Of a DNA stretch of 64,000 bases, positions 15,050 through 51,815 are shown in pieces. The position numbers and the translations under genes are program-made. This stretch comes from Lama guanicoe (taxonomy: Eukaryota), in contig MU053216.1 of NCBI GenBank assembly GCA_013239625.1, positions 1,390,943 through 1,454,942 of the forward strand, written 5' to 3'. The notes under the pieces were generated by a model. That model was not told the origin of the DNA and did not search any database. It saw only the letters and a program-made list of their open reading frames with translations. Position 1 is the first letter of the stretch. Each line of letters starts with the position of its first letter.

Positions 15050-16400
15050 CGGAGAAGCCGGGCGGGGAGGGAGGCCAGCCCACCTCGCCAAGCCTGCCGC
15101 CCGCTCCCCGGGGCCGGGCCGGGCCGGGCCGGGCGGCTACGGAATGGCCGAGGGCGCGTACGCCCTCTGGGCTCGGCCCCGACCGCGGGCCGGGCTCCGG
15201 AACGGGGAGCCGTCGTCCCCGGAGAGCGAGGAGGCCGAGCTGCCCCCGCGCGCCCCGCTGTCGGCCCGCCCGCAGGCCCCGCGCCGCCGCACCTGCGCGC
15301 GGAACGAGCGGTCCAGCAGCAGGTAGATGAGCGGGTTGGCGCAGCTGTTGACGAAGGCCAGGCAGGTGGCGACGGTGAGGCCCCAGCGCAGCGCCAGCAG
15401 CAGGCGGCAGGGCAGCGGCAGCGCGCCCAGGCTCGCCAGGTGGAAGACGGCGCGCAGGGCGCAGAAGGGCAGCCAGGAGCCCACGAAGGCGCCCTCGACG
15501 GCGAAGATGATGCGCAGCGAGCGGCTCCGGGCGCGGCCCACGTGCGGCGGGCGGCGCAGGCGGCAGGACACGCGGCAGTAGCAGACCACGGTGACGGCCA
15601 GGGGCAGCGCGAGGGTCAGCAGCAGCAGCAGCAGGCTCAGGCCCTGGAAGGCGTCCGACGGCTGCTCGCCGCACTTGGGGCCGCGGCCCCCGACCAGGCG
15701 CGCGCGGCCAGCGGGCGGCCCACGGCCAGGTAGCGGTCGACGCTGAGGCCGGCCAGCAGCAGGGCGCCGGCGCAGCGCGTGCCGGCCAGGGCGAAGCTGC
15801 TGAGCTTGCACAGGCCCTCGCCGAAGGGCCAGCGGCCGCCGCGCGCCGCCGCCGCCGCCCACAGCGGCAGCGTCAGCACGAAGCCCAGGTCGGCGGCCGC
15901 CAGGTGCAGCACGAAGGTGTCCACGAGCCGCCGCGGGCCGCGCCGCGCCGCCAGCAGCCACACCACGAAGGCGTTGCCCAGCAGGCCCACGGCGAAGGCC
16001 GCCAGGTAGAGCGCGGGGATGTAGGCGTAGCCGTAGGGCAGGTCCCGCGCCGCGCACAGCTCCAGCTCCTCCGGGGCGCCCGAGCCCGAGTAGTCCCAGG
16101 GCGCCGGCCCCGCGCTGGGGCTCCAGGGCTCGGTGGGGCGCATGGCTGGCGGGGCCCGGGCGGGCGCGGCGCCGAGTGAGCGGGCTGGCTCTTCACGGCC
16201 GGTGCCCAGCACCTCCCTTCCTGCCACCCCGACCGACCGAGGCGAAAGGGTGGGCAGGAAGGGGTGGGGGAGGAGGGGACGGAGGGGGAGGGGAGGCTCC
16301 TGCGGCGGGATCTGGGGCCGGCCCCAGAGGGAGGGGAGGGCAGGGCAGGCCGAGGGCTTCCCGGCGCGGGCCTTGGGGGAACGTCCTCAGGGCTGGGAGG
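15050..16400. promoter_or_regulatory. CpG island covering GPR25 body and 5' flank
   Basis: Very high GC and CpG density; (GGGCC)n run just 3' of the stop. Confidence 0.8.
15137..16143 (-). pseudogene. GPR25: GPR25 (class A GPCR, CXCL17 receptor), single exon, disrupted as assembled by a ~100-nt frameshifting deletion of TM4
   Basis: Frame 1 from ATG 16143 reads MRPTEPWSPS...YIPALYLAAFAVGLLGNAFVVW...LHLAAADL...SVDRYLAV (TM1-3). Frame 2 reads LVGGRGPKCGEQPSDAFQGLSLLLLLLT...FVNSCANPLIYLLLDRSFR (ECL2, TM5-7) to TAG at 15137. Span is 1007 nt, not a multiple of 3. Gene identity is high confidence; pseudogene status could be an assembly artefact. Confidence 0.8.
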
Positions 16401-28067: not shown

Positions 28068-28660
28068 CTGCAGGACGAGGGACAGAAGCAGAGACTCAGC
28101 AACCGCAATGGAGTCGACTTGCGCCACCGGGTCGCGCCTCATCAGCTGTAGGGCACGGGGCTCACAACACAACTCCTAGCGGCCGAAACGAGCCGCCCCC
28201 ACAGAAGCACAGCACGCTGCGCTAGACCCGCGTGCTGACAACCGAGCACGGAGGCCGCTGGCCCTGCGTGGCTGGCACAGCCCGCACAGTCCTGCGGGAA
28301 GCCTGAGACCCGAGCATCCGCTGATCTTCTCAACTGTCTCCATCGCTCACACCAGCACTGACACCCTCCTCTGCAACACAGCTTCGTTTTTAAAAGGCAA
28401 ATTATGTTACCTACATTTTGCAACATGAGTGAGTGACTCCGGGCACGAAAATGATTTGTAGCTTTCCGGTACCATCTGAAATCTGTCCCTAGCCTTTAGC
28501 GAAATCTGCAGTCCTTCAGATTCGCACTTGAAAGGGACACACTCTAACAGCGAGAACACGGTTACAGACCCTTCACGAGCAACGTGTCCTCTGAGCCGAC
28601 AAAGCAGTGACCTCCCGCCAGTTCACTCTGTTGTCACTTCTGTCAGGCAGGTGTGCTTAC

Positions 28661-28779
28661 CTCCAGTATTTTTTTCTTCTGACCTTCATTTACTTTTCCA
28701 GCCAAACAGCAGTGAGCTAACGCGTTCTGTATTATGTGCTTATTGGATTTTGCACTGGGTTCTTTGTAGAGCTTTGGTC
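28661..28779 (-). CDS. CAMSAP2: CAMSAP2 exon (CKK domain start)
   Basis: CCACAG|GA: (G)PKLYKEPSAKSNKHIIQNALAHCCLAGKVNEGQKKKILE|GTAAGC; 119 nt. Confidence 0.95.
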
Positions 28780-30048
28780 CTGTGGTAAGAATTTAGTAAC
28801 AATAATAAAGATAACATTCTTAGGTCAGAAACACCACTACGCTTCGATGAGGTCACTGTTCCTGCACGGATGAAACACAGTAACAGAAACTGAAGTCCGT
28901 GTCTGACGGCCCCTGGCTGGCTGTACTCCAGGCTGAGCACCGTTACCCACAGGGGCTGCCCTGGGGCCGGGGCACACGGTCTGTTTCACCAGCTTTCTCA
29001 AGTCTGTGAGGTTACTGGTGAGCAAAAGAGGACCTTGAGGACTTTAAGCTTTTAAAAGGCAAGAGAAAACTCCCTTTTTCTTCCTCCACACCTCTGTTTT
29101 GTAAGCCTTTCTTTCCCCAATGATACTCAATCCACAAAGCACAGAAGCAGGTGCCCGGGACATCGCACAGGCTCCCTCCTGCCTCACATTAACCGAAGTG
29201 CATCCTGGAAACTGTGCTCTGTGAAGGAAGGAAATCAGCCCTGATTTGTGTATTTACTGTTCTGTGGCGAAAATTACCCCTACCGTGGCAGAGCCCAAGC
29301 TATGATGGTTCTAGAGTCTGCATAATTCCTGAAAAATTTAACAGCTGGTCCAAGAGCTGGTGTAAGCTGGTCAGTGAACACCGAAGCCCGCAGTTCCAGG
29401 CTCACGGCAGCAACCGTGACTGTCAGCTGGCCTTGAAGGCGGTCAGACGGGCGGGGGAGGCTGCATGAAAAGCCACAGACAGGGCAGGGGAAGGCGCGGA
29501 GTGAAGCGGAGCCCTTGGAGGGCACGGGCTCCGGGCACCGGCGGGCCTGCCCCCACCCCGGCCGCTCCTCTGGACGCATCCTGACCTACACCCTGCTGCC
29601 TGCTCTGCCTGGATGCCGCCGACCCCACAGAGGCCGCCAGCCCTCAGGGATCCAACTCTGTCCTCAGTCGTTGCAGCCTCTCCACACTTGCTGCAAACGC
29701 ATGAGCCCAGGCACCAGAGACCCCAGGGACAGGGGACGTGGAGCCAGCCCTCGCGGTCCCCAGGAGCCTCTCTACAACTGCGTCAGACCCAAACCACGAC
29801 AGAGGCGGCCAGCATTCCCCGTGGGAAGTAGAGGGGTGAGGTGGACGCGGGGCTGCTGTGCTTTGGAAACCACCTCAATCTACACGGGACCAGTGCCACC
29901 TCCGAGTGGCGCCGTGTCACTGACACTGACCCACCTGGAAGCAACCACCGGCGTCACCATCACTGGGCAGTGAGGCGTCCCCGGCACAGCCGGTGCCTGT
30001 CCTCAGCCCCATGTCGCTCTGCTCCCCTAAAACCGTGCGGACACTGAC

Positions 30049-30164
30049 CTGTGTACTCCGCCCCGGAGGCCACGGACGACGTGGTGGACGCGTTCTCCCA
30101 GTCCTTCTCCCCGTTCCGACTGCCGCAGCGGCCGGGGGACAGAAAGCCTTCCACAGACTCCGAT
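30049..30164 (-). CDS. CAMSAP2: CAMSAP2 exon
   Basis: CTTAG|A: SESVEGFLSPGRCGSRNGEKDWENASTTSSVASGAEYT(G)|GTCAGT; 116 nt. Confidence 0.95.
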
Positions 30165-30853
30165 CTAAGGCACAGACAAAGTATTTTTTATGTCTTAAAT
30201 GGAGGAAAAACATTCGGGGTCAGAAGGGTATATGTGAGTGCCAACCAAAATCGACCTAGACTCTTAAAAAGAAGACGAGGGAGGCATGTCCACGTGCCCA
30301 GAATCCGCAGGCGCCCCACAACATCTGCTGAACGACAATGAACGTGCTTCCACGTGAAAACCGGCAATTAATGCAACAGGACAGGCACAGAGATGAGCGC
30401 TCAGAGCTGACGACTGTCACTTTTTCTCACGGGGGTTACAGTGTAAGACCGTGAAATGCTGGTCTTATTTCTAGCGTCTGTCCTAATAAAGAGAGCACGC
30501 ACAAGAGGCCCCGCCTGAGGGGCAGGCAGCCTGCTGGAGGTGCTCCAGGGAGGGAAATAAACCAGAGAGGCTGGCACTACACAGACGAGGGACCTCCCAT
30601 TCCTGCAGACCGTGATGTCTGTCACAACCCTGTCAGCAATGGCTGAGGCACAGCTACAGTTAGCATCTCATCAAGGTCACAGTTCTAAAATTCCAAAAAA
30701 CACTGGAAGATGAATAGGCCTCTTTATGTACAAATTCTTTTAACAGAAACCCAAACGGTCCTAGTCAGAACAACTTATGAAAATTTGTGGTCATGACTCA
30801 TTTGCTGTAAGACATAAAATGATGTTTCCTCAAGAGCGCGCACTGTGACTTAC

Positions 30854-30926
30854 CTTGGGGTCCTCTTGCCTGAGAGCACGCTCTCGTTATCCGCCGTGTT
30901 CAGTGACGCCAGAGAAAGGCTAGAGA
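30854..30926 (-). CDS. CAMSAP2: CAMSAP2 exon
   Basis: TTTCAG|TC: (V)SSLSLASLNTADNESVLSGKRTP(R)|GTAAGT; 73 nt. Confidence 0.93.
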
Positions 30927-31168
30927 CTGAAAAGACATGGTAAATTCATGATCCTGAATAAAAACAAAATGACAAGTTTAAACGGAGCAACTAGAAGGGC
31001 CTGCTCCTCGGCACCAGCATGCGGAACTCCCGCGCACGCAGTTCCACCCCCTTTCCTCTCCGGTTCGACCTGTGCGCACAACATGCTTGCTGCACACACG
31101 TGTCAGCTGTTTAAAGTTAGCAAGGAACCTACTTCTGAGAGATAATGAAGTGGGCGAGGGACAGAAAA

Positions 31169-31300
31169 GGGTGCACCTTCCAGTGAGAGAACAAGGGGGC
31201 GGCGGGACGGGACGGGGTGCACCTTCCAGTGAGAGAACGAGGGGGCGGCGGGACGGGACGGGGTGCACCTTCCAGTGAGAGAACGAGGGGGCGGCGGGAC
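31169..31300. repeat. 46-bp tandem repeat, ~2.9 copies
   Basis: Unit gggtgcaccttccagtgagagaacgagggggcggcgggacgggacg; 'gtgc' recurs at 31171, 31217 and 31263. Confidence 0.92.
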
Positions 31301-31439
31301 GTGACGCAGCTGGGGTGTCGTCAGTAACTGCGCCGCCTCCGCATGGGACGGCAAGCCGAAGCAGACCGGTCGTGACAACCGGTCTGAAACGCACAGAAAC
31401 CCGAGTCACTAGGCCGTACACGGGAACTGACACTGCTGT

Positions 31440-31830
31440 AGGTCAGTCATATTTCAAAACACAGACACAGAAAAAGAGATGGATTCGTGGTCACCGGGGG
31501 GGTGGGGGCGAGAGGGAATGGATGAAGGTGGTCGAAGGCGCAGACGTCCAGGTGTCAGACAAACAGTGCTGGGGTGTCAGGTGCACTGCTGACTGCAGCT
31601 GACCCCGCTGCGGGCCACACCGCCTGAGAGCTTCAAGAGAGTGAACCCTAAACGTTCTCATCACGAGGAGACGTTTTCTCCTTCTATTTCGTGTATGAGG
31701 TGGTGGGTGTCAGTAAGCTCACTGCAGGCATCATCTCATGACGTAGGCACCTCAGCTCACTCGGCCGAGCTGCTGTGCACCTTAAACTCATACAGTGCTG
31801 TGTGTCGATTACATCTCAATTAAACTGGCA
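31440..31830 (+). mobile_element. Old L1 (L1M) 3'-end fragment
   Basis: 'gagagtgaaccctaaacgttctcatcac...tgtgcaccttaaactcatacagtgctgtgtgtcgattacatctcaattaaactgg' is a typical L1M 3' terminus. Confidence 0.7.
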
Positions 31831-32567
31831 GGAAGAAGAGGAAGTAATGATAAAACTAAGTGCTGTTAGGATGTATTCCAGAAACAAAGTGAGCTAAGAC
31901 ACCGTGATTATTTTAAAAAAAAGTTAACGAAAAGAAAATTAAGAAAAGAAACTAACAAAAAGAATAACATACTTAGGAATACCTAATACTAGAACATTAA
32001 TTTAATTTCAGCCAATATTGTGTATCAAAAAATGTAACTGACTAGAAAAGGGAGAGTTCTCTTCAAGCAGGCAATCTGTTAGGTTATTTTCCTTTAGTCT
32101 TAGAATAAGTGTAAGAATTCTCTAAAATTTTCCATGGCATTTAGTTTTAATAAAATGAGTACAAAAAAAGAAATGAGTATGGATGTTCAATTAAAAAAAA
32201 AGATACTCTGTCTACTCTAGAAATGACGAACTTAGCTTTTTGACCATCTCCACCCTAAAGGAGGGACTCCTGCCCTCTTGGGCCCCGGACTCCTCACGTG
32301 GCTTCCTGTCCACCTGGTGACACAGCGCCTACCCTGCCATCACGGAGCAGGAGGGCTCAGCACTCCAGAGACTCTGGGTGGGGCACAGCGCCCCGCGCCA
32401 GCGGGTCCTCCGCAGACCGGATCCCTGAGGCCACGCCTGCTCTGCCGGGCGCACAGGCCGTGTCTGAGCCAGAGAGCCTCCCGTGCTCATCCTGGTCCAG
32501 CAGGGCTCCGGCAGCCGGCGTGACACAGGCTGCTTCCTGAACAGACTCTTCACCACGAGCACGTTAC

Positions 32568-32788
32568 CTGGGGGACCCTTCACGGGCGTCCTGGGGGACT
32601 CGACGTGGTCCCTGTGAATGGACTTTGGCCGCTGCTTCTTGGGCCGGGCCGGCTGCGGCCGGGCTTTGAGGACCGTGTCCATGTCCTCCATCAGCTTCAG
32701 CTGCTTGCGCCGCAGATGCTCCTGCCGGATGAACTCCCTGCGCGCCCGCTCGTCCTCCTTCCTCTGCCGCTCCTCCTCCGTCCTCCGC
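32568..32788 (-). CDS. CAMSAP2: CAMSAP2 exon (CC3 coiled coil)
   Basis: TGCAG|G: RRTEEERQRKEDERARREFIRQEHLRRKQLKLMEDMD...SPRTPVKGPP|GTAACG; 221 nt. Confidence 0.95.
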
Positions 32789-33212
32789 CTGCAGACCGAA
32801 AGCAGGGGTCTCAGCGCGCCCGGCCAGACAGGCCCTGCAGGGAGTGCTTACATGGTGGGGGGACTCTCACTTCAGCGCCTGGGAAACGGTTCCTTTAAAA
32901 TGTCCTGGGGGTGACGTAGGTCATTTGAATGTACCATTAGTAAATAAAATAACTACAAAAAACGTGTGTGTGTGTAAAACCCAGGGAAGTTACTTAAAAT
33001 TACTGTTTCTGGAGAACTTTAAGATGCCTCCAACTTGGGATAAAAATATGCAATCAAGCAACACTATGGGAAAATAACTTTACAAGGCACTCCAAGTCGG
33101 CATCAGTCCAGAGGTCCCCACACGCGCAAACTCTGAGAAACCTGCTGATGAGGACTTGACGGGAACCCACCCTGCCGGGCCCTAGTCCCCACATCTGTGC
33201 CCCATCTGCTCT

Positions 33213-33446
33213 AGGCCCCCGTCTCTTGCTCTGGGCCCCCGTCTCCCGTCTGGGCCCCCGTCTCCTGCTCTGGGCCCCCGTCTCCCGCCTGGGCCCCGCC
33301 TGCTCTGGGCCCCCATCTCCCGTCTGGGCCCCCGTCTCCTGCTCTGGGCCCCCGTCTCCCGCCTGGGCCCCGCCTGCTCTGAGCCCCCATCTCCCGTCTG
33401 GGCCCCCGTCTCCTGCTCTGGGCCCCCGTCTCCCGCCTGGGCCCCG
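33213..33446. repeat. GC-rich minisatellite (16-20 bp variant units, core ctgggcccc)
   Basis: Alternating units ctgggcccccgtctcctgct / ctgggcccccgtctcccgc / ctgggccccgcctgct, roughly a dozen units. Confidence 0.92.
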
Positions 33447-33456
33447 CCCGCCCCAC

Positions 33457-33593
33457 CGGGTCTCCTCCTTCTTGTGCTCCAGCTCCGCTTCCAGCTGCTG
33501 CTTCCGCAGCTGCGTCTCCTTTTCCCTCCTCAACCGTTTCTCCAGCAAAGCTGCCCGCTTCATCGCCATATCATTTTCTGCTTTTTGATCATC
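33457..33593 (-). CDS. CAMSAP2: CAMSAP2 exon (CC3 coiled coil)
   Basis: TTTTAG|GAT: DDQKAENDMAMKRAALLEKRLRREKETQLRKQQLEAELEHKKEET(R)|GTGGGG; 137 nt. Confidence 0.94.
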
Positions 33594-35394
33594 CTAAAAA
33601 CGAATTTCATGAGAAAGATGAGATGTTTTAGGTGCCAATATTCTCATTTTCAACGGCTGTAGTCACGTTTGGTAGTTACTCTTCTAACTGAAAATCTGAG
33701 TATGTTCACTCCAACCTTACCACAGAAGGACACGACCCAGAAATTACAAAGGAAAAAAGAATTCTAACGGTGACACGTTTACCAAACTTACTCAGTTACA
33801 TGTTTTTAAAACCCAGGAAATTAGCAAAAAGCAACATAAAAAAGGAAAGAAAAAGAACAAAGGTTTTTGGACCTTAATAAATAACTTGGAGTGGGGAGTT
33901 TCCTCAGTTTTAAAACCTGCATTTAAGTTGTATTTTAAATACATGCTCAATACAGAAAACGCAAGTAAAAGCACCAGAAAAGTCAGCTGCCCAGACTCGC
34001 GTCACATGAAGCAAAACGAATCGCACTGAAGGTCTCTCCTTCAGACAGAAGGCGGGCGTGTGACACCTCGCACCCACCCAGAGCCAGCCCACGGTCCGCA
34101 GCCCTCCCGGGCCTGCCCCAGCTTCCACCCGGCCCTCGGGGACAGGGTTCTCAGACGGCTTTCCTACTCCCGCAGTCAGGAAAGTGACAAGCTGGAGAAG
34201 AGGCTCACTGCCGTAGCGACTCCTTGTCGCGCTTAACTCTGAGTGTTTCGCAGCACAGCGTCAGGCGCTCCAGGGAGCTCCGCAGGGCAGCTTAGCGGGA
34301 GGGGAAGGGGACCAAACAAGGTGCTTTGCACAGAAACCCCGAGAGAGATGCGCTCTGGATGGAGAAGGTCAGAGGAGAGCAGTCAGTCCAAACACACACA
34401 CATCTGTATCTTTGCAGTCTTCCAGGCCTTTGCTCTGGGGCTAAAAAGACGCAGCACCGCTAGCAGCTCACAGGCTAAGAGGCACCTAACGTAAGCAGCT
34501 CACAGGCAGCCGAGAGCCCCGGGTCACCAGCACCGCCTGAGTACGTTCCGGACACAAAAGCAGCGTTCTATGAAAAACAGCAGTCCTGCCTAGTTGAGAG
34601 ACAACACACGACTCACATTCAAACGCCTCAACGTTCAGAAGGGCCTAAGGAGCCATCTCTCTGAGTCACGACCCAAAGGGAAACCAGCAACCGTGATCAC
34701 TGCAGCATCTTGGTTCTGACTACAGTGGGGCTGCGTCCGCTGCATTTAAAGTCTGGGATGCTGGGTTCTGTGCCGTCGAATGCTGTCCTTTCTACCTGAT
34801 TCCAACCTGTGGAGCTGCTCAGGGTCACAAATGATCTACTCCAGCCCCTTAATTTACAAAAGCAACATGAGCAGCACACACACACGCTTCTGATTATTAA
34901 AAACCATCTTCTACCCTACAGGTAATTTGGAAGACACTGAAAAATATGAAGATGAAAAAAATGGGTGATAATTAGGAGAAAAGTTTTTAAACTTTATCGG
35001 GCTTTCCTTATTCTAGCATCTAAGATAAATTTCAGGACTTACGACCGAGAGGGGACACTGCCCAGCACCTGTGTCAGGTGGCTGCGGCACTGTTTAAACA
35101 CGTGCCCTGCCCAGCCAAGGCTGAGACGGGGGTCACGCACTGCACCCCAGGGCTGTTGAGGGGCCAGCTCCATGACAACCGCAAAACTATGTATTTTACA
35201 ATGTTTCGCCTTGCCAGCTTCACCTGGTCAATTTTTAAAAGACTTCAAACAAAACATAAGAGGGAGGATGGCCAAGACTAAGAAAACAAACTCAGACAGA
35301 CTTACACGCAGTGCCAAGTTAGGAGCTTTTTGCAAACTGGCAACAACTTTTTGAAGACATCTGGATCACTTAGTTTTTAAAAGACTTTTGTGAA

Positions 35395-35395
35395 A

Positions 35396-35443
<48 letters not shown>
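35395..35443. repeat. (GT)n(GA)n microsatellite
   Basis: Directly visible. Confidence 0.92.
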
Positions 35444-35445
<2 letters not shown>

Positions 35446-35703
35446 AGGGGAGAGGGCGTGGAGGCCAGACACGCACCTGACGTGACGAAAGGAAGCCGGA
35501 CCCTGAGGTCAGTGAGCCTGACCGGCCGGTACCGCAGGCCCCACGAGAGGGGGGCGGGCGGGGGGGGTACAGTGTCACTAAAACGTGCCTGGGGAGCAAA
35601 GGCAGGCCTGGAACAGAAGGGACGCGCTGAACGAAGCCAGCGCGCCACCTCAAAAAGCCCACCAGTGAAGACGCCTGGAACTGCGCAGATTCTACCGTTT
35701 TAC

Positions 35704-37879
35704 CTTGAAGAAGAATCCGCAGCACACTTTCTGGTCATCATCAAATTGCTCTTTATCACTTTCTCCATCGTACTTTTCAACAGACACATCAGCCTTTTCA
35801 GGCGGTTTCAGATCTGAGAGGGAGACTTCAATCAGACTGACATTTCTGGGAGCAGCAGGTGGGAACACTGGCTTCGAAGGCGGCTCTGCAGGGTGCGTTG
35901 GTGGGTCCCCATCAGGGGAGGGGCCCGCGGGCTCGGGGACAGGCTGCATCGGGCCCTCAGGGGCGGCCAAGGGCAGAGGCTGGCTCTCCCCTCCCTCCGC
36001 GCTGTGTCCACACCCTGCGGACCCCGGCTCCTCCTTTCTACCCTCCTCCTTCCGCCTGGGCTCCTGTGCCTGAGGCTCTCCATCGTCCCCCAGACACACA
36101 AACGACCTGGTCTGAATGGGGACCTGACTGGGCGAGAACCTCCTCAAGCGGGGAAGACTGTCCACGGAGCGCGGGGCCGTCAACGTCCGGTTCAACGGGG
36201 TGATTTTTAACTCATTTGGCCTGGGAGTCCTCTGACTCTTAGCAGAGAAAGATGCACTCTTCCTGGTATTAGACTGGGGAGACGGGTGGCCAGGACGCGG
36301 GGAGTCCGTGGAGAATGGGGCGCCGGCCTGCCGGGGGGCTCTGCAGTCCCGCGGCTGCTTCTGCGGGGAGGGCTGGGGCGGCGAGATCACCCAGGCCTGC
36401 TGCTCCCGCATCTGCATCAGCAGCTCCTGCTGCAGGGACAGGCGCTGCATCTCCTGCTGCAGGAAGTGCAGGGAGGAGTTCAGCCTCTCGATGGACCTGG
36501 TGTACTCCAGGAGCTCCCCTTCGTTCAGAGTGTCTTCCGAGGGGCTGGCCAGGCCCCACTGCTTCTCAGGGTCCACGGGGGCGGCAGGTGACTTCAGCCA
36601 CCCGCCCTGAGGGTTCTCCGCTCCCTCCTTTATGTCCGCCAGAGACTTGCTCCTCTGCCCGTGGGCTCGTGGTGGCCCCTTCTCCTTGGCCCGGTCGGTG
36701 AACACCTTCTCGTCCTCAGCACCGGCCGCCTCCTCGCGAAGAGGGGAGGCCCCGTCCCCTTTCTTCTTCACTACCGTGAGGAACGCCGTCCGACCCATCT
36801 TCTGCCTTTGTTTCGTGAAAGCGGCCTCCATCTTCTTCTTCTGGGCCTCGATAGCTCGCCTCTTTTCTTCCAGTTTCATCCTGAGATGCAGCATCTCGGA
36901 GGCCAGCAGCTGCGTGGTGTCCCGCCCCTGCGCCAGGCCCGCTTCCTCCGGGATCTGAGCCCAGGCCACCACGTGAGGGATGTTGAGCTCCGAGCCCTCG
37001 GGCGTCGTCTTCTGGGAGCTGCCTCCGCTGCTCTTCCCGTCGGCATGGTGCAGCTTCCGGAACTTCTGCTCGGCAAAGCTGGTCATCTTCACGCCGGAGC
37101 TGGAAGAAGCGCTGCTGCCGGGCTGCGACCTGGTGCTCACGGTGCTGGGGCAGGGGCTCAGCGCATCTCTGGGCTGGCCGCCTCGCACGTCATAATCCGG
37201 AAGGAATTTAGAAGCGTCGTCCATGTCGGAGTCCAGACTGACAGTGTAGTCTCTCAGGGAGGAGTCCTCATCCATCGTCTCGGGGATGTCTTCGGAAGGG
37301 ACGTGGATCCCAGTGTCCACCTCGGTGTTGTCAGTAACGGGGCTCAAGGCGCCCTTCCCATCGGTCGTGCTCTCGGGGCTGGGCCGGCCCAGCGGGCTGC
37401 TGGAGCGCAGGACGCTGGCGTCCTGGCTGTGAAGGAAGAAGCCATTAGCGATGTGGTCCGTCTGGGGTGGGCGGGGCGTCTTCTCGGTGTCGTGGATTAT
37501 CTGCAGAGCCTCCTCAATGCTCGGGGTCCCGATCTGATTGCCAAACTCATCCAGAAGCACTCGGTTCTGTAAAGCTCCATTTGGAAGCTTATAATGCAGG
37601 TTCTCATCAGAATTCAGTTCGTCTGTGTTCAGGGGCAGGTAGGCCGTCAGGTCGCCGTGAGAGCCCACGTTCAGCTCCTCCTCAATGCCTTCTGCTTCCT
37701 CCTCCCCGTTGACGGGCTTGAAGGACAAGTTTTTCCTAATGTTCTTAGACACACGATTGTTGTTCAGGGTAAGTCCCTCGTTACTGATAGAACGGGTGAT
37801 TCCTCGGTTTAGAGTGGATCTCTGTACAGTATTTTCTTTATCAAAAGAAATGTCAAATGAAACTCCATGCACTGATGAT
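35704..37879 (-). CDS. CAMSAP2: CAMSAP2 large central exon (CC1, CC2, proline-rich region)
   Basis: TTTTAG|A: SSVHGVSFDISFDKE...KMTSFAEQKF...LRMKLEEKRRAIEAQKKKMEAAF...DDDQKVCCGFFFK|GTAAAA; 2176 nt, open throughout. Confidence 0.97.
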
Positions 37880-38147
37880 CTAAAAAAAAAAAAATTAGAG
37901 AGAGAGTCCCCAAACAAGCTCAGAGAAGAACGTCTGATGCCGCTGAGCAACAGTTCTCTGAAGCCACACCGCCTTCTTTCCGCTCCCCCTAATCACAGTC
38001 CTCAGGGCAAGGCGAGGGCTGCCAGGACCCCCGCTACCCTGGCCCCTGTGGCCTCTCTCACCTGCCTGTCTTCAAATGTGGGTACTAATTAAAAGTCTAC
38101 TGGATGTGGCCAACAAGGGGGGCCCCCACGAGACCTCCCAGGGTTAC

Positions 38148-38217
38148 CTCTTCTCCTTGGGCCAGGTCCCGACGGAGCCATCAACGTAAGACATGGATGA
38201 AGACCTTCTTATTCCTC
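38148..38217 (-). CDS. CAMSAP2: CAMSAP2 exon
   Basis: CTGAAG|GA: (G)GIRRSSSMSYVDGSVGTWPKEK(R)|GTAACC; 70 nt. Confidence 0.93.
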
Positions 38218-38486
38218 CTTCAGACGCATAAAAGAAAGTCATTGAAATCACATAAAAAACATTAACTTACAACAATTTAACGGATTTCACATATTTGAGG
38301 ACTCACTAACAACAGCATTAAAGGCAAGTGGGTGCATATGGAGAAATAAAGGTCGTTTTATAAGAGAAGCAAGCACAGGGAAACAGATCCACACTTCTTA
38401 GAACAAAGGCTGGGTATTTCTGTGTATTTACATCTCCCAGTCCACCACCTAAATGACCTCGTCCTAGGCTTTTCCAGACGGATTAC

Positions 38487-38569
38487 CTGGGGCAGAAGCA
38501 GGAGCCTGGGCACGTGCGCGTCTGGTGGGCACGTGGTGAGGCGCGTGAGTGAAGGCCGCGCCCTCCCCC
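38487..38569 (-). CDS. CAMSAP2: CAMSAP2 exon
   Basis: TTGCAG|G: GEGAAFTHAPHHVPTRRARAQAPASAP|GTAATC (human GEGATFTQSHHHLPSRYSRPQAHSSAS); 83 nt. Confidence 0.9.
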
Positions 38570-40537
38570 CTGCAAAGGAACAGACGGGGCAGGTTACGGC
38601 GCCCTGGCCTCTCAGCCGTGCGCGAGCGGCTCAGGCGGAGCTGCATGGTCGCTCCTGAGTCCCCATCTTTAGCAGAAAGGAAGTTGGGGAAACACTGACA
38701 CAGTGTTTAAACCAAAGAACGGCTGGGGCTACATGGATCTCTACGTATTTTATGTCTCAGCCAAAGAGCTGGAACCCCTACCTCCATGTATAACTCAGTG
38801 TCCTGGGGAGACAAAATACAGAGCACCGTTTTTACTTCACAAGCAGAAAAACTGAGAGTTAAAGAAGTTAAAAGAAAGTCACCAGTCTGAAATATTTTGG
38901 TCAAACTAAACCTCTCACGTAACCGGTCCCTGTAAGAGCCTGGCAGCCCGGCGCGTGGCCCCCGCACTCACACCAACATCAACAGAGCCCTCCGGGCCCA
39001 TCAAGACGGGCAGCTTTCCTGCAGCTTCTTTCTGTTGACTTTCACCCCATCCCAATCAGTGCGGGGCGGACTGGACAGTCTATTTCTCAAATTATAATGA
39101 CATTCGGCCAAAGTTTACCTTTTCCTCTTCTAAGCCTCCAGCCTGCCCCGGCCCGCCTTGCGGCAGGGAGGCATCCCCACCCCTGCTGCGTGAGAGGAGC
39201 CGGGGCAGCAGGACACAGTCCCTTCTCAGACCACACCACCCGCACCATCTGGCTGATGCGCACTGAGAGGACCAGCCAACTCAGGAATTCAAAGGTAAGG
39301 AACAATATCATATTCTTACTGTTTAACAAAAGCCACATTCGTTAGCTCTGCAAAAGCAACGACCCCTGAAGCACTGACACAAAGCTGCTGCCTCACCTCC
39401 CCCCGCAGGTGAGTCGTCCCCCCCCCCCGCTGTCCGCAGTGCTTTCTCAGGTGCTCGCACTGCCCCACCCCGTGTCCCTTCCAAAGTCTCTGCTCTCCCA
39501 CGTCTGTGACCAGAGGGGAATCCCAGAGATGCAGGTCAAGTTACTCGAACACGTGCCCTTTCTCCTTCTCCAGCAGCGGCTCGGCACCCGCGCTGAGGAC
39601 GTGGCGTTCACTCCCAGAGGGAGCAGCAGGCCAGGGCACGGAGCAGCTGCTGGAAATGTCCTCTGCTTTGCCGCCCCCTTCCTTAGTTTTTTTTCCCTCA
39701 TAAGATCATTATTTAGGAGTAATATATTTGTAGTGCTGACTGCATTATTCTCAGAAGGGCAGAAATTCTTGAGTCCTTCCTCCAAAGTTTTCCAGCAGGA
39801 GAACCACGAACGGCCCACATGGAAACTCACAGAAATGAGAGGATTACACAACGGCTCTTCAAGGAAAATAGCTGAGACGTCCACCTCGCTGCAGAAGGCC
39901 CTGCTGCTGGGAAGATGGAGAAAGGGAGCCACTCGTCCAACTGGGAGACAGAAAAGGGACGAGTCTTTCAGGGGCTCTTAACGCAGTTTCCAGCGTCAGA
40001 AACGTGGACGGCTGTCCACTCGGGTGCCTGGAAGGAGCAGCTAGGGAATAACCTCACCCCTAGGTGGCAAGTTTCAGAGTTCTTAAAGACTTAACAGTAC
40101 GAGAGTAACAACCTACAGCACTGTTTCCTAAACTTCCAGTGAAGCCAAGCCAGGAAGGCACAGAGGAAACCCCACGCGGAAAAGCTTCCCAAGGCATCAG
40201 ACAGGGAGGCCCCCAGATCAGCCTCCGCCCAACCTGCTAAACCTCAGTGACAGTTTCGGAAGGGCAAACTCAGGGCAAGAAAGAAAATTCACGGCGGCGA
40301 TCAGAGGGTAGGCCAGGAAGACGCCCTCTGAACCTGCAGGAAGCCTTCACGGAGCCCAGGGAGCCGCGGGGGAGGGGGCCCGGCAGGGCTGCCCGCTCTG
40401 CTCGGCTCGCAGCCGCCGCCGGGGAACGGCTCACGTGCGGGCAGTGGGCGAGAGCTCTCTGTGTTGAGACAAGAGCTCATACCCAAAGTACTTCTAATTT
40501 CTTACTCGTATACTTTAACTGTATTTTTAATAGATTT

Positions 40538-40674
40538 TTCTTTTTGGTGAGGCGGAGGTAATTAGGTTTATTCATTTTATTTTATTTTTTTAGTGGGGGT
40601 ACTGGGGATTGAACCCAGGACCTCGTGCATGCTAGGCATGCGCTCTACCACTGAGCTATAATACACCCTCCCCC
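40538..40674 (-). mobile_element. Vic-1-type SINE with 16-bp target-site duplication
   Basis: Intact tRNA-like head (tagctcagtggtagagcgcatgcctagcatgcacgaggtcctgggttcaatcccc on the minus strand). TSD tatttttaatagattt at 40522-40537 and 40677-40692. Confidence 0.9.
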
Positions 40675-41335
40675 AATATTTTTAATAGATTTGCTTGAAT
40701 TTCTAAAAAATCCCACAGAATACATCAGTTCTAAACTTAAAAAAAATCATAAATTATTGAGTCCAAAGTCAATATACATTTCAGGTTCTAAGAAATACAC
40801 ATTAAAAGCTGCTTACAGGATCTGCTGAAAAGCATTTTTAAACAAATTAATGTCTCTATCATATTTGGGTCAGAAGTCAGGATTATCCTGATATTAAATG
40901 TTTACTTTGCTTTCAATTCACTTTCTGAGACTAAGAACTAAAGCACTGGATAAAGATTCAATATTACAATAAATATTCCATTGTGACCTCTTAATAGCCA
41001 AAGTAACCAGCAAACAAACAGTAGGAAAAACTGCCTCAAAGATTAAAAAATTGTTTTTAAAAAATTAAAAAACCCAAGTAGAATTTAAAAATTTCCCAAG
41101 GCCTAAGAGTTACCTATGACTTAAGCAGCATATAATCCCAATTATAAACAAGTTATGCAGCAAAAGTTTGGTTTTAGGCCAGTTATTTGGACCTTAGAAT
41201 ATATTCCTCCACTTCTCAGTGTGCATTTCAATTACACTGATGTTAAAATAGACTTTAATAGGGTAGGCTAATGGAAACTGATTTAGTTCAAAGTTCAACT
41301 GAAAATTTAAAAATTCTAATGCAACAAAATTTTAT

Positions 41336-41490
41336 CTCTGGGGTTTTTTGGGGGGTGGGAGTGAGGTGGGGAGGTAATTAGGTTTCTCTATTAAAAACAA
41401 TTTTTAAAAAATGGAGGTACTGGAGATTGAACCCAGGACCTTGTGCATGCTAAGCACACGCTCTACCACTGAGCTACACCCTCCTCACCC
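41336..41490 (-). mobile_element. Vic-1-type SINE
   Basis: ggaggtaattaggttt...gattgaacccaggaccttgtgcatgctaagcacacgctctaccactgagctacaccc; flanked by aattttat repeats. Confidence 0.88.
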
Positions 41491-41561
41491 TATAGAATTT
41501 TATTTTGACTCTATTAGTGAATGGGTAAAAACGGGGAACGTGCAGTCACTCTGGAACCTAC

Positions 41562-41646
41562 CCTGGACTGAGATCAGGGCTGTCCAGGGCGTGTCTCTGG
41601 GCAGCATTAAAGACGGGAACTGAAGGCGGATCGTCCACAGGCTCAG
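41562..41646 (-). CDS. CAMSAP2: CAMSAP2 exon
   Basis: TTGTAG|CT: (A)EPVDDPPSVPVFNAAQRHALDSPDLSP(G)|GTAGGT, homologous to human AEPVKDMPSIPVLNAAKRNVLDSSSDFPS; 85 nt; phases fit both neighbours. Confidence 0.88.
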
Positions 41647-43286
41647 CTACAATGAAAGACAGAATCTCAGAATTACGCATTTAGCATGTTTCCAACATTA
41701 TTTCAAGGACTCTGCACCACAAATAAATGTTTAAGTTTATTCTCAATTTCTCTTACTACTTACAGAGAATTCTTAGCATATTTAAAGTTTTCTTTTAAAA
41801 TAATTTTCAAAAGGACAAACTTTCCTTAATCTCCTCTTGAAGTGCTCTTGCTTAAAATACTCACTTGATTAAAGCTACTGGTGGGGGAGGCTTAACATAA
41901 AATAAGTACAGAATTTAAAATAAAAATAAATGTCTAATTTTGCTAAAGCTTTCGCAGAACTTCAGTTACATATAGTCATTTTTGCTTCTTTATGAAACAG
42001 CTGGCATTTTGGTAATCAATCAAAGAAAGAAACAGAATTTCACTGGTTAATAATTAAGCCTACTGGTACAGTCTACATTTTTGTAAACAACTCTGGTGGA
42101 AGACTCAATTTATTTTTTGCCTTTGAGGCCTAATGTAACAGCTGTTGAACATTCTGAATAGTGGCTTCATAGAGGAGATCGTAGGAAGCAATGTATATGA
42201 AAATTCTATGTTAATAGTAAAAAGTTGTACAAATATCGGTTACAACTGCTAGTGACCATCAATGGCCGTGGGGAAGGACTCCAACTTCTTGACAGCTATT
42301 CCTTGTGATATCATGACTGCTATGCAGCCTCCTCCTTAAGCAGCTTGGAGACAGACCAGATCAAACACTGCGTGTTTTACAGAATCCGGCCTGAGGTGCG
42401 GCGGGCTGACTGCAGTAACCTCACTCCGCTCACTAGAGCGACGCGCCCCCCTCACCCAACCGCGGATCTCCCCCTCCTTCCCGATCTCATCCTCTTCCTC
42501 GGTGTTTCCGAGGGGAGGTGGGCGCGGGGAGAAATGAGGGAGCAGCCAACTCGTTAGGATGCACAGTAGCCACATTTTGCGTCGGGGGGACACTGACGGC
42601 AGGAAGAGCCGAGTCACGCTGAAGAAAGTTCTTCAGGGGCTAAACTTGTAACGTGGGACCGTTTTCCCGTATAGAAACACACCCCTGGTTTATAATGGAA
42701 GCCAATGGAAAATCTGCTTTGAGAGAAAACGCAGGAAGACTTTCCTATTCTTTACTTCTAGAGATCTTTACAGTAACTCACCCCTTTATTTCTTACTAGT
42801 GTTCTTGTTACGTGCAATCAACAGATCATGATACTGTAATAATCACAAAACCTACTATGTTAAAAAAAATATATATACATACAAACTTTTTCACGGCTTA
42901 ATGGCAAATTCAAAGTACACATGCCAAGCCATAATCTGAGTGGACTCTGGGTAACAATATTAAAAACTTGGAATCTAAGAACAAAGGCCAGGGATGAGGG
43001 TAAAAAATGCTAAGAAAAGAGAGTAGGCAAACAGTCAGAGCTAAAAGTTCCACAACACAAGCCTTCCGACTCAGGGCTGTTCTCACCACTTCCTTCCCTC
43101 CACAGCATCTCTCTCTCCCAGAGAATTTGGTGGCTTTAAATACTAAAATGCTCAGACTTTATCAAGGCTAACAGGTGCAACATGAAACAGCAACAGGCTT
43201 CCCTCTACAAAAACAAGCAGGTGAGGCCACATAAACTTTCCACTCTGACTGTTTACAGGACACTCAAAACTGCAAAGATCCATCAC

Positions 43287-43380
43287 CTCCTTGTGCACGA
43301 ACATCGCGGGGCTGAACGAACGAGGGCTTCACAACCTCGAACCACCAGAAGAGTTCCGCCATGAACACCAAGTAATTGCT
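43287..43380 (-). CDS. CAMSAP2: CAMSAP2 exon (end of CH domain)
   Basis: CCTAG|AGC: SNYLVFMAELFWWFEVVKPSFVQPRDVRAQG|GTGATG; 94 nt. Confidence 0.95.
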
Positions 43381-43873
43381 CTAGGAGAGAGTTCAGAAAA
43401 TTCAGAGAAAAATTAGGTAGAACTTGACCAAACAGTAATGAGAAATAGAATTTTCTTCTGTTTTACCTCGCAAATTAAACGCAGCTTTAAATATCATTCA
43501 CACTTCACTAGAGTCTATCTACCATACGGTATTAAATCTAGGACAGAAAATTAGTGCTTGTAGGTAGAACTTACAACAACCATTCAAAATCTCTTTCCTG
43601 GTTTATTACAGTTTCCGTTTATCCGTCAGGCGTTAACACCTCGGACTGTGTGGAACATGGAGACAGTGTGCAAGCCGTTCCTCTTCCAAAGTCAACACAC
43701 ACAACTTAGACAGAATAATTAGGTTCTTTCCAGATTCATAAGAAATTTCTCCAAAGCGTAATCAGGTGCCTAGTTTAAAAACATTATATCTATGTGCTTG
43801 GTAATACTAAAGTCAAGAGTAATCCAGGTGCTAAATAAATAACACAAAACTCTAGACTGTTGTGGCTAATTCT

Positions 43874-43924
43874 TTTTTTTTTTTTAATTTTATTGAGTTA
43901 TAGTCAGTTTACAATGTGTCAATA
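43874..43924 (-). mobile_element. Ultra-short 5'-truncated L1 insertion with TSD
   Basis: Poly-T plus 'aattttattgagttatagtcagtttacaatgtgtca' (reverse complement of the L1 3' end), between tgttgtggctaattct and tgttatggctaattct. Confidence 0.8.
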
Positions 43925-45029
43925 TGTTATGGCTAATTCTTAATTTTGAAATGTACAAAGACACTGTTAGCACAGTTTGATATACCCACCTAGTTTTTAA
44001 AAATTATTAATAAGGATAAGTCAACCATGTCATTTGCCATTTGTTATTTATATTTGAAAATGTGAATAGTTTTTTAAATGGCTTAAAATTAAGAGAAAGG
44101 TGTAAGTGGGTCTTCAGGACCCACTTTTCTACCACAGGCTTATATTTTAAAGTGCATACATTATAAATGCTATAAACATGAAAAGTTATTTTAATTGTAG
44201 GTATTTGGTAAGTTCTAAAAAACAGCACTACAACAAAATTTGTTTATATAATATTTGAAAACAACACCACACCTTTTAACTTCTGGGTATTTGGCATCTA
44301 ACACAATTGTTGCTGTTAAATTGACTAATATCTGATGAGTAAGGTCTTATTTCATACGAAATTTCAGTTTGCAAAACCACCACTGGAAACGTGAGTGTCC
44401 CCACGCCGCGCCCACCTCCTCCTGGCTGATTATCAACGGCCCTCAGGGCCCAGAGACGGTCTCGGGGCTCCTCATCCTCTCTGTTCTCTCCTGTGTACTG
44501 AGCCGGTGACTTACAATACACATCTCTCCCCTGGCCGCTCTGGAAGGTGAAGGCTACCGTGTGTGCAGGAGTGAGGGGCAGAGCAGAATCAAGGGGGGCT
44601 CAGGTTTTCTCCAGCAATGGACAGTGCCATTTAATGAAGTGGGAAGATGGGGAAAGAGCTGTGAAAGGAATCGTGAGTTACTGGCTTTGAGAGGCTGAGC
44701 AGACACTTAAGGGGGCCTGCCCGGGCGGGTGGAGCTAAGAGTCTGGAGGGCGACCGAGGATGAGACAGCGGTGAACAGAACTTGGCAGGTTTCCTACTTT
44801 TCAGCGTTTGCTTTTAACGATAACTTCTCAGAATATTCAAACACTTGTATACAAATGCATACCATTTTAAACAGTCATTAAAATTTGTGATTTTCTAAAG
44901 AAAGAAATGAAGAATGTTTATAGTCCCTGAAGCTGTGCTGGGAGCTGGATCTCAGCCCTGCTGGCCTCGCAGGAACCTCACATTCTTATTCCATCTCCTT
45001 CTCCCGGACACTTACTCTTCCCCTCAGCT

Positions 45030-45910
45030 GAACCCTTCCTACTTGGCTTCTGCACACACTCACCTCTCTCCTACTAAAAGCAAAACCAGGCCTGCACTCC
45101 ACGGTTCACCGTCCCCCCGCTCGCCCCATCTTCCTGTGCCTCTGCAAACGTCTCTATTGTCCTCCACCCTGGCCGTCGCCACTCCAACCCACTCCAACCT
45201 GGCATTCGGGCGCCCTTCCCCTAGAACAGCACTTGCTCACGTCGCCAGCGACTGTCACTACGTCAAGCAGGTTTCAGTCGTTTTCTTGATACTCCTGGCC
45301 TGCCCCCTGCGAGAGCTGTCGCCCGTGCTCAGCAGCTGCCACACGACTCCCAACGTGCTGACGGTGCTCACACGGAGGCGGCCGACAGAGCATCCCTCCT
45401 GCACGTCTCAGAGGCACCTCGGCTGTCCGGGACTGAGCAGTAACCTTCCCACAGACCCAACCTTATTCAGTCTTGTCGCACGGAACAGCAACCACCATCC
45501 CAGCATGCAGACCAGAAACCGCAGGGTCCCCCGTGGGCCTCCTCCTCACTCCTTTCCCAGATCCGATTCACATCGGGGCCTGCAGACCTCACACCCGAAA
45601 CATCTCGGGAATCTACCCACTTCTCTCCCATCTTCATCACAATTACTCTCATTTTGTTTCAGCCAAACAAAATTTCCACACTGCAACCTGCCTCCCCCCG
45701 CCTGCCCCTGTTCTTGGGAACCGACTACAGGTTACCCGAGGATACATGATGGGGTCCTTTTTACTTTCCCCAGCTTCATCTGGTACCACATTCCCCACTC
45801 TGTGGTCTGGAAGGACAAGCTGTGCTCACCACTGCATCTTCAGTGTTTAAAGCAGGGCCTGGCACAAAGCAGACGCCCAATGACCATTTACTGAACGATG
45901 AATAATGAAG
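45030..45910 (+). mobile_element. L2 LINE remnant
   Basis: Pyrimidine-rich L2 body ending in 'gcctggcacaaagcagacgcccaatgaccatttactgaacgatgaataatgaa' (L2 3' end); left boundary approximate. Confidence 0.65.
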
Positions 45911-46189
45911 GAATAAACCTACAATGTGAAAGACTAGTGACTGGCAAAACATCAAACACTGCTAGGGAGGATCTCTGGGTGAGAAGACGACTGTGACCCG
46001 TGCTTTCTCTGTATGCTTATCTCTGCAGTATACTTTCTAAAGCCGAAGTATAAAACTACGAAGTACGGGCTAGGCGGCACTCTACTAGCACAGTTAACAG
46101 GAAGCTGTGTATGTCTTTTGGAAGGACACTGTTTAAGTGCTCGATAATTGTCTGTTGACAGAAAATTAGTCAATATTTTAAGGACCCTG

Positions 46190-47135
46190 GTGCTGGACAT
46201 CACTTATCGTCAGGGAAGTGCAGATCAGAAACACAATCTATCACTTCACACCTGCCAGCACGGCTGTCAACAAGAAGACAAAAAAGAGAAAAGGGGACCT
46301 TTGTGCACTGCTAGTGGGGATGTAAAGTGGTATAGCCACTGTGGAAAACAGTTTGGAGGTTCCACAAAAAGTTAGTAATAGAACCACATTAGACCCAGCA
46401 ATGCCTCTTCTGGGTACACGTCCAAAGAAAATGAAAACAGGATCTCAAAGAGGTATCTACACTCCCGCGTTCACTGCAGCGTTGTTCACCGTCGCCAGGA
46501 CATGGGGAACAGCCCGTCAACCAGCAGGTGACTGGATGAAGACACGGTGTGTATGTATACAAAGAAATCCCTCCATTTGAAACCACGTGGCTGGACCTTG
46601 AAGGTATTACGCTACGTGAACTAAGTCAGACAGAGAAAGACAAACACTGTATGGTGTCACCTGTATGTGAACCTAAAAAAGCCAAGCTCACAGAAACAGA
46701 GAGCACAGTGGTGGTTACCAGGGACTGGGGGGGGGGGGGGGGGGGGCGGGNNNNNNNNNNNNNNNNNNNNNNNNNNNNNNNNNNNNNNNNNNNNNNNNNN
46801 NNNNNNNNNNNNNNNNNNNNACCAGGGACTGGGGGGGGGGGCGGTGTGCAGGAGAAATAGGGAGTGTTACTCAAAGGGTACGAACTTCCAGTTCTAAAAT
46901 GAACAGGCTCAAGGGAGCTAATGACTGTGGTTAATGACACTGTATCATATATTTGAGCTCCTAAGAGTAGGCCTTAAACGTTCACAACAAAGAAACGGTA
47001 ATTACGCAATGTGATCGAGGTTTTAGCCAACACCGTGGTGGTAACTGCGCTGCAATATGTAAGTTAAATCAACACACTGCACACCTGAAACTTACACAAT
47101 GTCACATGTCGATTACATCTCAGTAAAGCTGGGAA
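46190..47135 (+). mobile_element. L1M 3' fragment (end of ORF2 + 3'UTR), contains an assembly gap
   Basis: 'gccactgtggaaaacagtttggaggttcc...gacccagcaatgcctcttctggg...gaaacttacacaatgtcacatgtcgattacatctcagtaaagctgg'. Confidence 0.85.
46751..46820. other. Assembly gap (70 N)
   Basis: Run of N, flanked on both sides by the same 'accagggactggggggggg' sequence. Confidence 0.99.
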
Positions 47136-48879
47136 CAATGTACTGTAAGCACTCTGGTAAGGTGACTGTCCTAAAACATTACTGTGTTTGGCCACAAGAT
47201 GTCAGTAAGAAATCATTTTCCCAGTAGTCAAAGCTTATGAAGATAATTTCTTTCTGAATTTATGATGATTAAACAGCTATAAATCTGCCGCCATTTTCCA
47301 GGAATGATAGCAAATTAATTTCACTAAAAGCTTCTCTTTCCTGCTCTTAGTTAAGGCAGGCAGCTGTATATGAACTTTCTCAAGCAATGTGAACAATGCT
47401 AACCAACACAAATAAAGACTGAAAAATAAGAGCAAACGTTAACACCTCTGCCCAGATCCCAGTATCACACTCAGAAGAAGCCACTGTTAGCAGTTTCGTG
47501 TTTTCTTTCCATAGACCTTTCCTCATGCATCTATGTATGCGTACAGATTTGCAAACAAATAGAGAAAGGATTTTTTAAGCAAATGCAAAGGACACCATGC
47601 TATGTACACTGTTTGCTGTCTGCTGCTTTACTCAGCAATGTCTTGGAGAGCTTTCTGCATCAGTGAAATACGTCTGCCTCCTTCCTAGAAACAGCTATAC
47701 TATATTACAAGACATTTTAATTGTGTCCCTACAAGATGAATTGCTTCCAGCTATTCGCCACCATGAACAGTCCTCACCCACCCTGCTTGTCCTTTAGATC
47801 TGTTCAGATAACGCCAAACTGCCCTCTAAAAGACCACACCGGTTTACACTTCCACCAAGAGGGCAGAGAGAGCTCGCTCCCAACATCGCCACGAACACCT
47901 GTTGTTAGTTAACAAAGCGACAGCAAGGTGCCCAACGTCATGCACTGAGCAACCTCTTGGAGGCTTGGAGTCTTAAAATACTCCACTGAAATCAAAGCTG
48001 TGGTTCTTATAATTCAGCAAAGAATATAGAAAGTGACCAAAGTCTTCTCTGCAGACAGTTATCTATTTTAAAAATGCCTGAATGAAGAAAACGTCTTTGT
48101 ATCTGGATCACGCCCGGACTATGCTGATCTAAACATCAAGGCTACGTAGTATTTACTGGAAGTCCAAGATATACAACTTAAACAAACGTAACTGATTTTA
48201 CAACTCAATATATTTAACGAGATGATTTTTTCCTTTGAGATCACAATAGTAGCGTTTAAATTTTTTAACAAGCAAGTGCCTGAAAAGCCATTAACCAGGT
48301 ATACATGGAAGTATTTCCTAACTTCCATTTCGATACAAATGTCAGAATGGAGACAGTCAGAATTAATCAAGGTTTGTCTTCTGATGTGTCAGACAGTGGG
48401 GAGGGGGCACTGCTTCGGACAACAGGAGCGGTGGCTTGTTTGGAAACGCCTTCACTGCTGGCTCTGTCTTTACGTCGTGGTGAAGAAGAACCGGGCGAGG
48501 GAAACAGAGGCACCGGAGAGCAGGAGTTGAGACCCACAAGGTGCCAGCATCACCCCGAGGGCCCCTGGCAGGCCTCCCGAGGCCGGCACCGCCACCCACC
48601 CCCGACCAGGTTCACCAGCATGTCGCCCTCACATGCATGAGTGTGGTGCCCTGAAGCCGGGGCGCAAGCAGGGTTGATGACATGGCTCTGTACTGAAAAA
48701 GAAACCTGCAGCTAACAGTGTATTTAAAAAAATCCCAAAACATAAAATCAGCAGAAAACTCAAACAAAAACTATTTTTTCAAAAGCTGCTTTGACTGAAA
48801 TCACAGCTCGTTTGCGAGCTTCACGCGGCTGGACTGCTCATGTACCTAGATGCGCAGGGCAAAGGGCGATTTACCTCAC

Positions 48880-49019
48880 CTTTATGGAGGAAGCCGCATA
48901 CAGCATATCTTCCAGGGTGAAATGGCAACACTGGTTCAGGTATTCTTGGCAAAACTCTTGAATCAGCTGCAGGTTGTACAGGCTATCAGCCAAAGACATG
49001 GTTTCTTTCAGACAAATGT
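48880..49019 (-). CDS. CAMSAP2: CAMSAP2 exon (CH domain)
   Basis: TTGCAG|AC: (D)ICLKETMSLADSLYNLQLIQEFCQEYLNQCCHFTLEDMLYAASSIK|GTGAGG; 140 nt. Confidence 0.96.
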
Positions 49020-49306
49020 CTGCAAATAGGAAAAGAGCGAGGGTTGATTTTGATAATACGCATTTTGTATCCATTTTGTAATTAGTAACTTAATACAAAT
49101 ATACAACTGCAAAGAATCTGTTTAACACACTCACGTATAAATACAGTGGTCATTCCAGACAGACCTAGAAACCAAGCACCATTTTACTCAGCTGTCCTCC
49201 TCAGAGTCACACACACGTGTCCTTTTCAGAGAAGCCTCATTACCTGTACGTGTAGTCTCAAGTGTTTGTTCCCGCCCATGGCTTGGAATTTCAGCGGAAG
49301 ACTCAC

Positions 49307-49448
49307 CTTCCAATCTGACAACACCAGGACAGTAAAAATGGATCAGGGCCGCTAACGCACAGCCGTCGGTACCATCTTTCAACAAATTTTCTACCAGTGG
49401 AATGCAAGGCAGCTGCTTCAGCAATGTTTGCTCTTTCCTATAACGAGC
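49307..49448 (-). CDS. CAMSAP2: CAMSAP2 exon (CH domain)
   Basis: TCACAG|GCT: ARYRKEQTLLKQLPCIPLVENLLKDGTDGCALAALIHFYCPGVVRLE|GTGAGT; 142 nt. Confidence 0.96.
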
Positions 49449-50159: not shown

Positions 50160-50350
50160 ACCTGGGTTCCGATCCCGGTTCTGCACCTCTTAGCTCTGCA
50201 ATCTTGGACAACTCACTTAAACTCTCACTCCTCAGTTTCCCCATCTGTGAAGCAGGAGACGACAGCCCCTACTTCCCAGGACCACTGGAGGGGTGAAGAG
50301 GAGGCGGGACAGAAAGTGCTCTGCACAGCGGGGCACTCAGAGGGCAGCTG
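50160..50350 (+). mobile_element. MIR SINE
   Basis: 'cctgggttccgatcccggttctgc...cttggacaactcacttaaactctc...ctcagtttccccatctgtgaa'. Confidence 0.7.
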
Positions 50351-51697: not shown

Positions 51698-51815
51698 TGT
51701 GGGACGTAATTAGGTTCATTTATTTACCTCTTTTCAGTGGAGGGACTGGGGATTGAACCCAGGACCTCGTGCATGCTGAGCACACACTCTACCACTGAGC
51801 TGTACCCTGACCCCT
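51698..51815 (-). mobile_element. Vic-1-type SINE, adjacent to a short L1 3' fragment (51610-51668)
   Basis: gtaattaggttcattt...ggggattgaacccaggacctcgtgcatgctgagcacacactctaccactgagctgtaccc. Confidence 0.85.

Follow-up and report, generated by a model that had tools for sequence, protein, structure and literature searches.

A 100-nt Gap in a Camelid GPR25 Gene Is Probably a Local Assembly Error

The 64,000-nt stretch of camelid DNA analyzed here (the window) carries, on its minus strand, a GPR25 gene that is broken near its middle. The gene is single-exon, and one continuous coding block extends from the ATG at 16143-16141 to the TAG at 15139-15137. Codons 1-150 (15694..16143, minus strand) match alpaca GPR25 in frame and encode the N-terminus, TM1-TM3, the DRY motif and the start of ICL2, while codons 183-368 (15137..15697, minus strand) lie in another frame and encode the ECL2 Cys, TM5-TM7, NPLIY, the C-tail and the TAG. 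Where the two meet, R148 of DRYLAVGRPLAAR ends at 15700, GC follows at 15699-15698, and CTG GTC GGG GGC ... TGC (LVGGRGPKC) begins at 15697; the junction occupies 15694..15699 (minus strand), with a break that can be placed anywhere within GCCTGG. Past A149 and W150, the ATG frame continues through 18 unrelated, out-of-frame codons and ends at a TGA at 15639-15637 (tail SGAAAPSAASSRRTPSRA plus the stop, 15637..15693, minus strand, by translation), which yields a 168-aa product (P0001). The frame of TM5-7 is open from 16192 to the stop at 15139-15137 and has no Met in any of its 351 open codons; its last 186 residues (P0002) contain TM5-7 and NPLIY. The coordinates that an earlier note on this DNA had given for these features all hold on re-reading of the sequence and its translations, which likewise reproduce the 168-aa product and the lack of an ATG in the downstream frame that it had described. 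As assembled, seven helices are not encoded in one reading frame, TM4 being absent and the frame shifted, and the GPR25 product would be at most a three-helix fragment of 168 aa. An intronless mRNA escapes EJC-dependent decay.

The proposal that this gene is GPR25 is borne out by identities to alpaca of 98-99% in each half, by synteny with CAMSAP2 and by the Pfam family 7tm_1. The N-terminal part matches profile positions 1-96 of 260 (E = 3.7e-22) and the C-terminal part positions 142-260 of 260 (E = 3e-15), leaving positions 97-141, which comprise TM4, unmatched at the locus. The N-terminal part shares 149 of 150 residues with the alpaca protein (P0003), the sole difference being T11A; in the C-terminal part the figure is 183 of 186, with P184V, S189P and Q190K as the differences. 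A search with the C-terminal part returned 67 matches, every named top match being GPR25, and 98% identity to the alpaca protein over 100% of its length. CAMSAP2 exons lie upstream (28658..60864, minus strand). They were located by tblastn of a naked mole-rat CAMSAP2-GPR25 fused model (P0068) against the window, which gave nine matches, eight to CAMSAP2 (residues 169-930) and one to the GPR25 part of the model. The order of the two genes in that fused model is the order found in the window, and CAMSAP2 is also the neighbor of GPR25 in alpaca and Camelus. There is one GPR25 locus in the 2.05-Gb, 55,231-piece assembly, and the runner-up is a paralogue with 36% identity. Judged by its sequence and setting, the locus is the orthologous, single-copy gene for this class A receptor of lymphocytes in a South American-type camelid.

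The earlier note had estimated a frameshifting loss of about 100 nt that included TM4. The loss amounts to exactly 100 nt (33 codons plus 1 nt), because the GPR25 span measures 1007 nt here vs. 1107 nt in the 368-aa camelid orthologues and a position-by-position comparison with alpaca finds the junction to be the sole indel. Missing are alpaca residues 151-183/184, that is, RTRRCALLACGGVWAAALAAGLPSLAFRGLRP plus one base, which make up the rest of ICL2, TM4 and the start of ECL2; the base-level placement of the junction follows from the protein comparison. It is because these 100 nt are absent after codon 150 that the ATG frame ends early at 15639-15637. The human segment of about 34 residues that the note had given for this interval is identical to residues 149-182 of chimpanzee GPR25 (P0019). 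Its statement that the gene carries no other disabling lesion also stands: DRY, the ECL2 Cys and NPLIY are all kept, and beyond the junction there is no further stop or frameshift.

Base composition at the locus is extreme, as had been noted: G+C reaches 77.7% in the GPR25 coding sequence and 80.2% within 50 nt on either side of the junction, where GCGCGCGC is located at 15705-15698. Just past the junction lies a perfect 14-nt palindrome, GGGGCCGCGGCCCC (15677..15690, no strand assigned), which is read directly from the sequence and contains the site of the S189P change. Folding of the region around the junction gave a minimum free energy of -35.8 kcal/mol vs. -36.7 ± 2.8 kcal/mol for shuffled sequences (z = 0.32), which gives no support for a special hairpin. 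Between 14952 and 16579, open frames of 150-350 codons occupy five of the six frames over GPR25; these are an expected by-product of stop-poor DNA of 78% G+C and not overlapping genes. The window has a second very GC-rich kilobase at 1-1000 (75% G+C), which is probably the CpG island of a neighboring gene.

The comparison of camelid orthologues that the earlier note called for finds an intact 368-aa GPR25 in all four camelids on record, Vicugna pacos, Camelus ferus, C. bactrianus and C. dromedarius. All four 368-aa proteins are among the 10 members of the 90% cluster to which that of alpaca belongs. The four models derive from chromosome-scale records of 34-44 Mb and none bears the LOW QUALITY flag, a flag that does exist in that collection, where it is kept for Crocuta. 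The alpaca protein (XP_072804354.1) shares with the window its start, its stop, DRY, the ECL2 Cys and NPLIY, and is identical at 332 of 336 comparable residues; it and its Camelus counterparts are complete, whereas the window lacks the 100 nt. Moreover, the 32-residue segment RTRR...GLRP that is missing from the window is identical across the four species. At eight diagnostic positions the window gene carries the residues of lamines, and it departs from Camelus at 10-12 residues, which places its source among llama/alpaca-type camelids. At residue 11, however, it has A, as does Camelus, vs. T in the alpaca reference, and because of this difference the window must come from an individual or species other than that reference.

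According to passages of PMC12905490 and the abstracts of other papers, GPR25 is the receptor of CXCL17, a mucosal chemokine that acts as its agonist. A check for the ligand gene in the same genome, also suggested by the earlier note, found three open exons: three exon matches to CXCL17 (Pfam PF15211) score above the cut-off on one contig, together cover positions 4-89 of 89, contain no stops and end in ...FALPL. On this sequence CXCL17 looks intact, and it does not appear to have been lost together with the receptor. A weaker CXCL17-like exon pair (L022; G000:C1236:3129172-3129243 and 3131439-3131504) lies some 47 kb downstream of the intact-looking gene. It scores below the Pfam cut-off, one match has a TGA inside, and the reading frame of the exon-3 copy opens only shortly ahead of the match; the pair may be a tandem duplicate of CXCL17 in decay.

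Three of the four residues at which the window differs from alpaca fall within seven codons after the junction (15674..15694, minus strand, from the orthologue alignment): GTC at 15694-15692 gives V for P184, CCC at 15679-15677 gives P for S189, and AAG at 15676-15674 gives K for Q190. P, S and Q are the residues found there in all eight of the full-length orthologues aligned. The probability of at least three of four differences falling in the eight named codons is 5.3e-5, and in 16 codons 4.2e-4. Three or more base substitutions so close to a join, in a stretch of about 20 nt, point to a poor contig end and not to a simple deletion; such clustering is what error-laden contig ends predict and what a clean deletion does not. 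We infer that the join is artificial, and that the 100-nt gap in GPR25 is probably a local error of a fragmented, scaffolded draft assembly, an incorrect join where coverage dropped out in GC-rich DNA. With read coverage failing where G+C is about 80%, the sequence would have broken into two contig ends, the downstream one with low-coverage base errors. The ends would then have been joined or gap-closed on the few bases that they share, (C)CTG(G), with the result that ICL2, TM4 and the start of ECL2 were skipped and the frame shifted. The real gene, in that event, would be a normal 368-aa seven-helix receptor.

Besides the crowding of substitutions at the join, the high G+C of the locus and the intact gene in independent assemblies of four camelid species, another faulty contig end in the same assembly, the one example found, speaks for an artefact. 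The only N gap in the window, 70 N at 46751-46820 (feature 46717..46845, no strand assigned), has ACCAGGGACTG(G)nCGG on both flanks, with the longer G run on the left. Probably an overlap was left unmerged here and no DNA is missing, and the duplicated flanks indicate that contig ends at G runs are unreliable in this assembly. A search of sequencing runs for words of GPR25 listed 24 runs. In 14 DNA runs from 5 organisms and 6 studies, between 0.88 and 0.93 of 150 sampled words were found and in none a higher share; these are shares only, and weak, circumstantial evidence. Three RNA runs (X15-X17) held 0.39-0.47 of the sampled words, which, as word shares only, are uninformative on the junction; they hint at transcription of GPR25. 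None of three truncated or fused ORFs was found in a collection of 15 billion proteins. Similarly, none of the 69 matches to a 306-aa fused ORF covered more than 65% of its length, and none of 14 protein matches of nearly the same length carried the tail of the truncated product; the protein collections searched may lack gene calls from lamine runs. Two exact 29-nt patterns, aimed at host-derived artiodactyl GPR25 DNA, had no match among JGI metagenome contigs.

The chief rival to a false join is that the lesion is real. GPR25 would then carry a null allele through a very recent, frameshifting loss of 100 bp, which may be private to the sequenced animal, polymorphic, or fixed in one South American camelid species other than the alpaca reference. 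Slippage in repeat-like, GC-rich DNA, or end joining mediated by microhomology there, could have produced such an allele, whose intronless mRNA would escape EJC-dependent decay and could yield a three-helix fragment of 168 aa without receptor function. Several features are as this reading would have them, and as such count against an artefact. The junction reads cleanly and contains no N, and the possible (C)CTG(G) microhomology is of a kind also seen in real slippage and end-joining deletions. Of about 110 other GPCR loci matched in the assembly, nearly all are single open frames, and the folding of the DNA around the junction is not unusual. Furthermore, the T11A difference sets the animal apart from the alpaca reference individual and leaves room for an allele of its own. 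Neither a second copy nor a stray piece of GPR25 turned up elsewhere in the assembly. A full-length alpaca query produced 113 matches, of which only the two halves at the window contig were GPR25, with the next best at 36%, and a 501-nt DNA query matched the window contig over its full length at 100% and three other places only in short stretches of 69-87% identity. A query with a 46-aa segment spanning the gap found nothing better than unrelated DNA at E = 0.68, and was insensitive to short pieces, in that the window's own 12 shared residues also went unreported.

Against a real allele, a simple deletion would not be expected to come with three further, non-conservative substitutions, all at positions that are invariant elsewhere and all within seven codons of its junction. 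The remainder of GPR25 is undecayed, CXCL17 looks intact, and the TM4 segment is the same in every camelid on record; the truncated form is absent from the public protein records searched, and no run, on word shares only, exceeds 0.93 of the sampled words. Taken together, the evidence favors an assembly error over a real allele, which we regard as unlikely, though far from fanciful. A somewhat fainter possibility is the more specific claim that the receptor gene underwent a real, recent knockout, present or fixed in one South American camelid whose ligand gene is intact. The CXCL17-GPR25 axis reportedly has a role in lymphocyte homing. Were the knockout true, a farm animal would naturally lack the axis by which lymphocytes home to non-intestinal mucosae, and would offer a test of that axis in the airway, urogenital and other mucosal immunity of a large mammal.

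A loss of GPR25 by the camelid or lamine lineage as a whole, adaptive or neutral and possibly along with its ligand, is highly improbable. The window, taken by itself, does show only the broken frame. Four intact orthologues with an identical TM4 segment nevertheless refute such a loss, both for camelids and for alpaca, and it is at odds with a gene that has one lesion and otherwise agrees with alpaca at 332 of 336 residues, as it is with the open exons and C-terminal motif of CXCL17. Our literature search, too, returned nothing linking GPR25 with alpaca, and for GPR25 together with "camel" the titles and abstracts returned concerned only ostrich CXCL17 and avian GPR25, and apelin receptor pharmacology. 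Accordingly, of the two options in the earlier note's title, "gene loss or assembly error," the first does not survive as a lineage event and the second becomes the likelier explanation, while its caveat that the event is "very recent, polymorphic or artefactual" is right. It is very unlikely, indeed scarcely credible, that the gene seen here is a duplicate or retrocopy in decay, with a working copy elsewhere, because there is one GPR25 locus with CAMSAP2 upstream on the same strand and the next match is only 36% identical; no point in its favor was found, and although introns cannot distinguish a retrocopy of a gene with one continuous coding block, synteny argues for the parent locus.

A false join is also favored by what other draft genomes show. 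Among eight partial GPR25 models from such genomes, seven are missing this central segment wholly or in part, namely those of white rhinoceros (Ceratotherium, P0094), African elephant (Loxodonta, P0080), giant pangolin (Smutsia, P0014), squirrel monkey (Saimiri, P0082), tree shrew (Tupaia, P0083), spotted hyena (Crocuta, P0086) and guinea pig (Cavia, P0096), all of which were aligned; in the eighth, from Sousa, the segment is not missing. The TM3-ICL2-TM4 center is absent, as in the window, from the models of Smutsia gigantea (327 aa), Ceratotherium simum (326 aa) and Loxodonta africana (294 aa), and the interval lacking in Smutsia is almost that of the window. Their relatives Manis javanica, Diceros bicornis and Elephas maximus, in contrast, have full-length models. 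The partial models, which come from different species, skip the missing part in frame, whereas the join in the window is gapless and shifts the frame; N gaps, and not collapsed joins, may underlie them. Draft mammalian assemblies recurrently drop the TM3-TM4 part of GPR25, a hole that could be misread as gene loss in comparative screens, and, if the present gap is an artefact, gene-loss screens should leave GPR25 uncounted unless reads support the loss. A further case is P0085, the 171-aa ORF of a Logan contig with a ruminant-like GPR25, in which two frame changes occur within one short-read contig: it begins out of frame, enters the true frame from RWPFGEGL and leaves it again after TM4, ending in ...RRTPSRA*, in the same frame as the truncated product of the window.

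The position of the gap can also be read against receptors of solved structure. For both halves of the window protein, the best PDB matches are the apelin receptor (e.g., 5vbl, 8xzf) and GPR15 (9wxm, 8zqe), with no GPR25 chain among the matches listed. Both are paralogues of GPR25, with BLAST identities of 33-36% in the genome search. In GPR15, residues 28-147 align with the N-terminal part and residues 184-315 with the C-terminal part, and the unmatched residues 148-183 between them correspond to the segment missing here.
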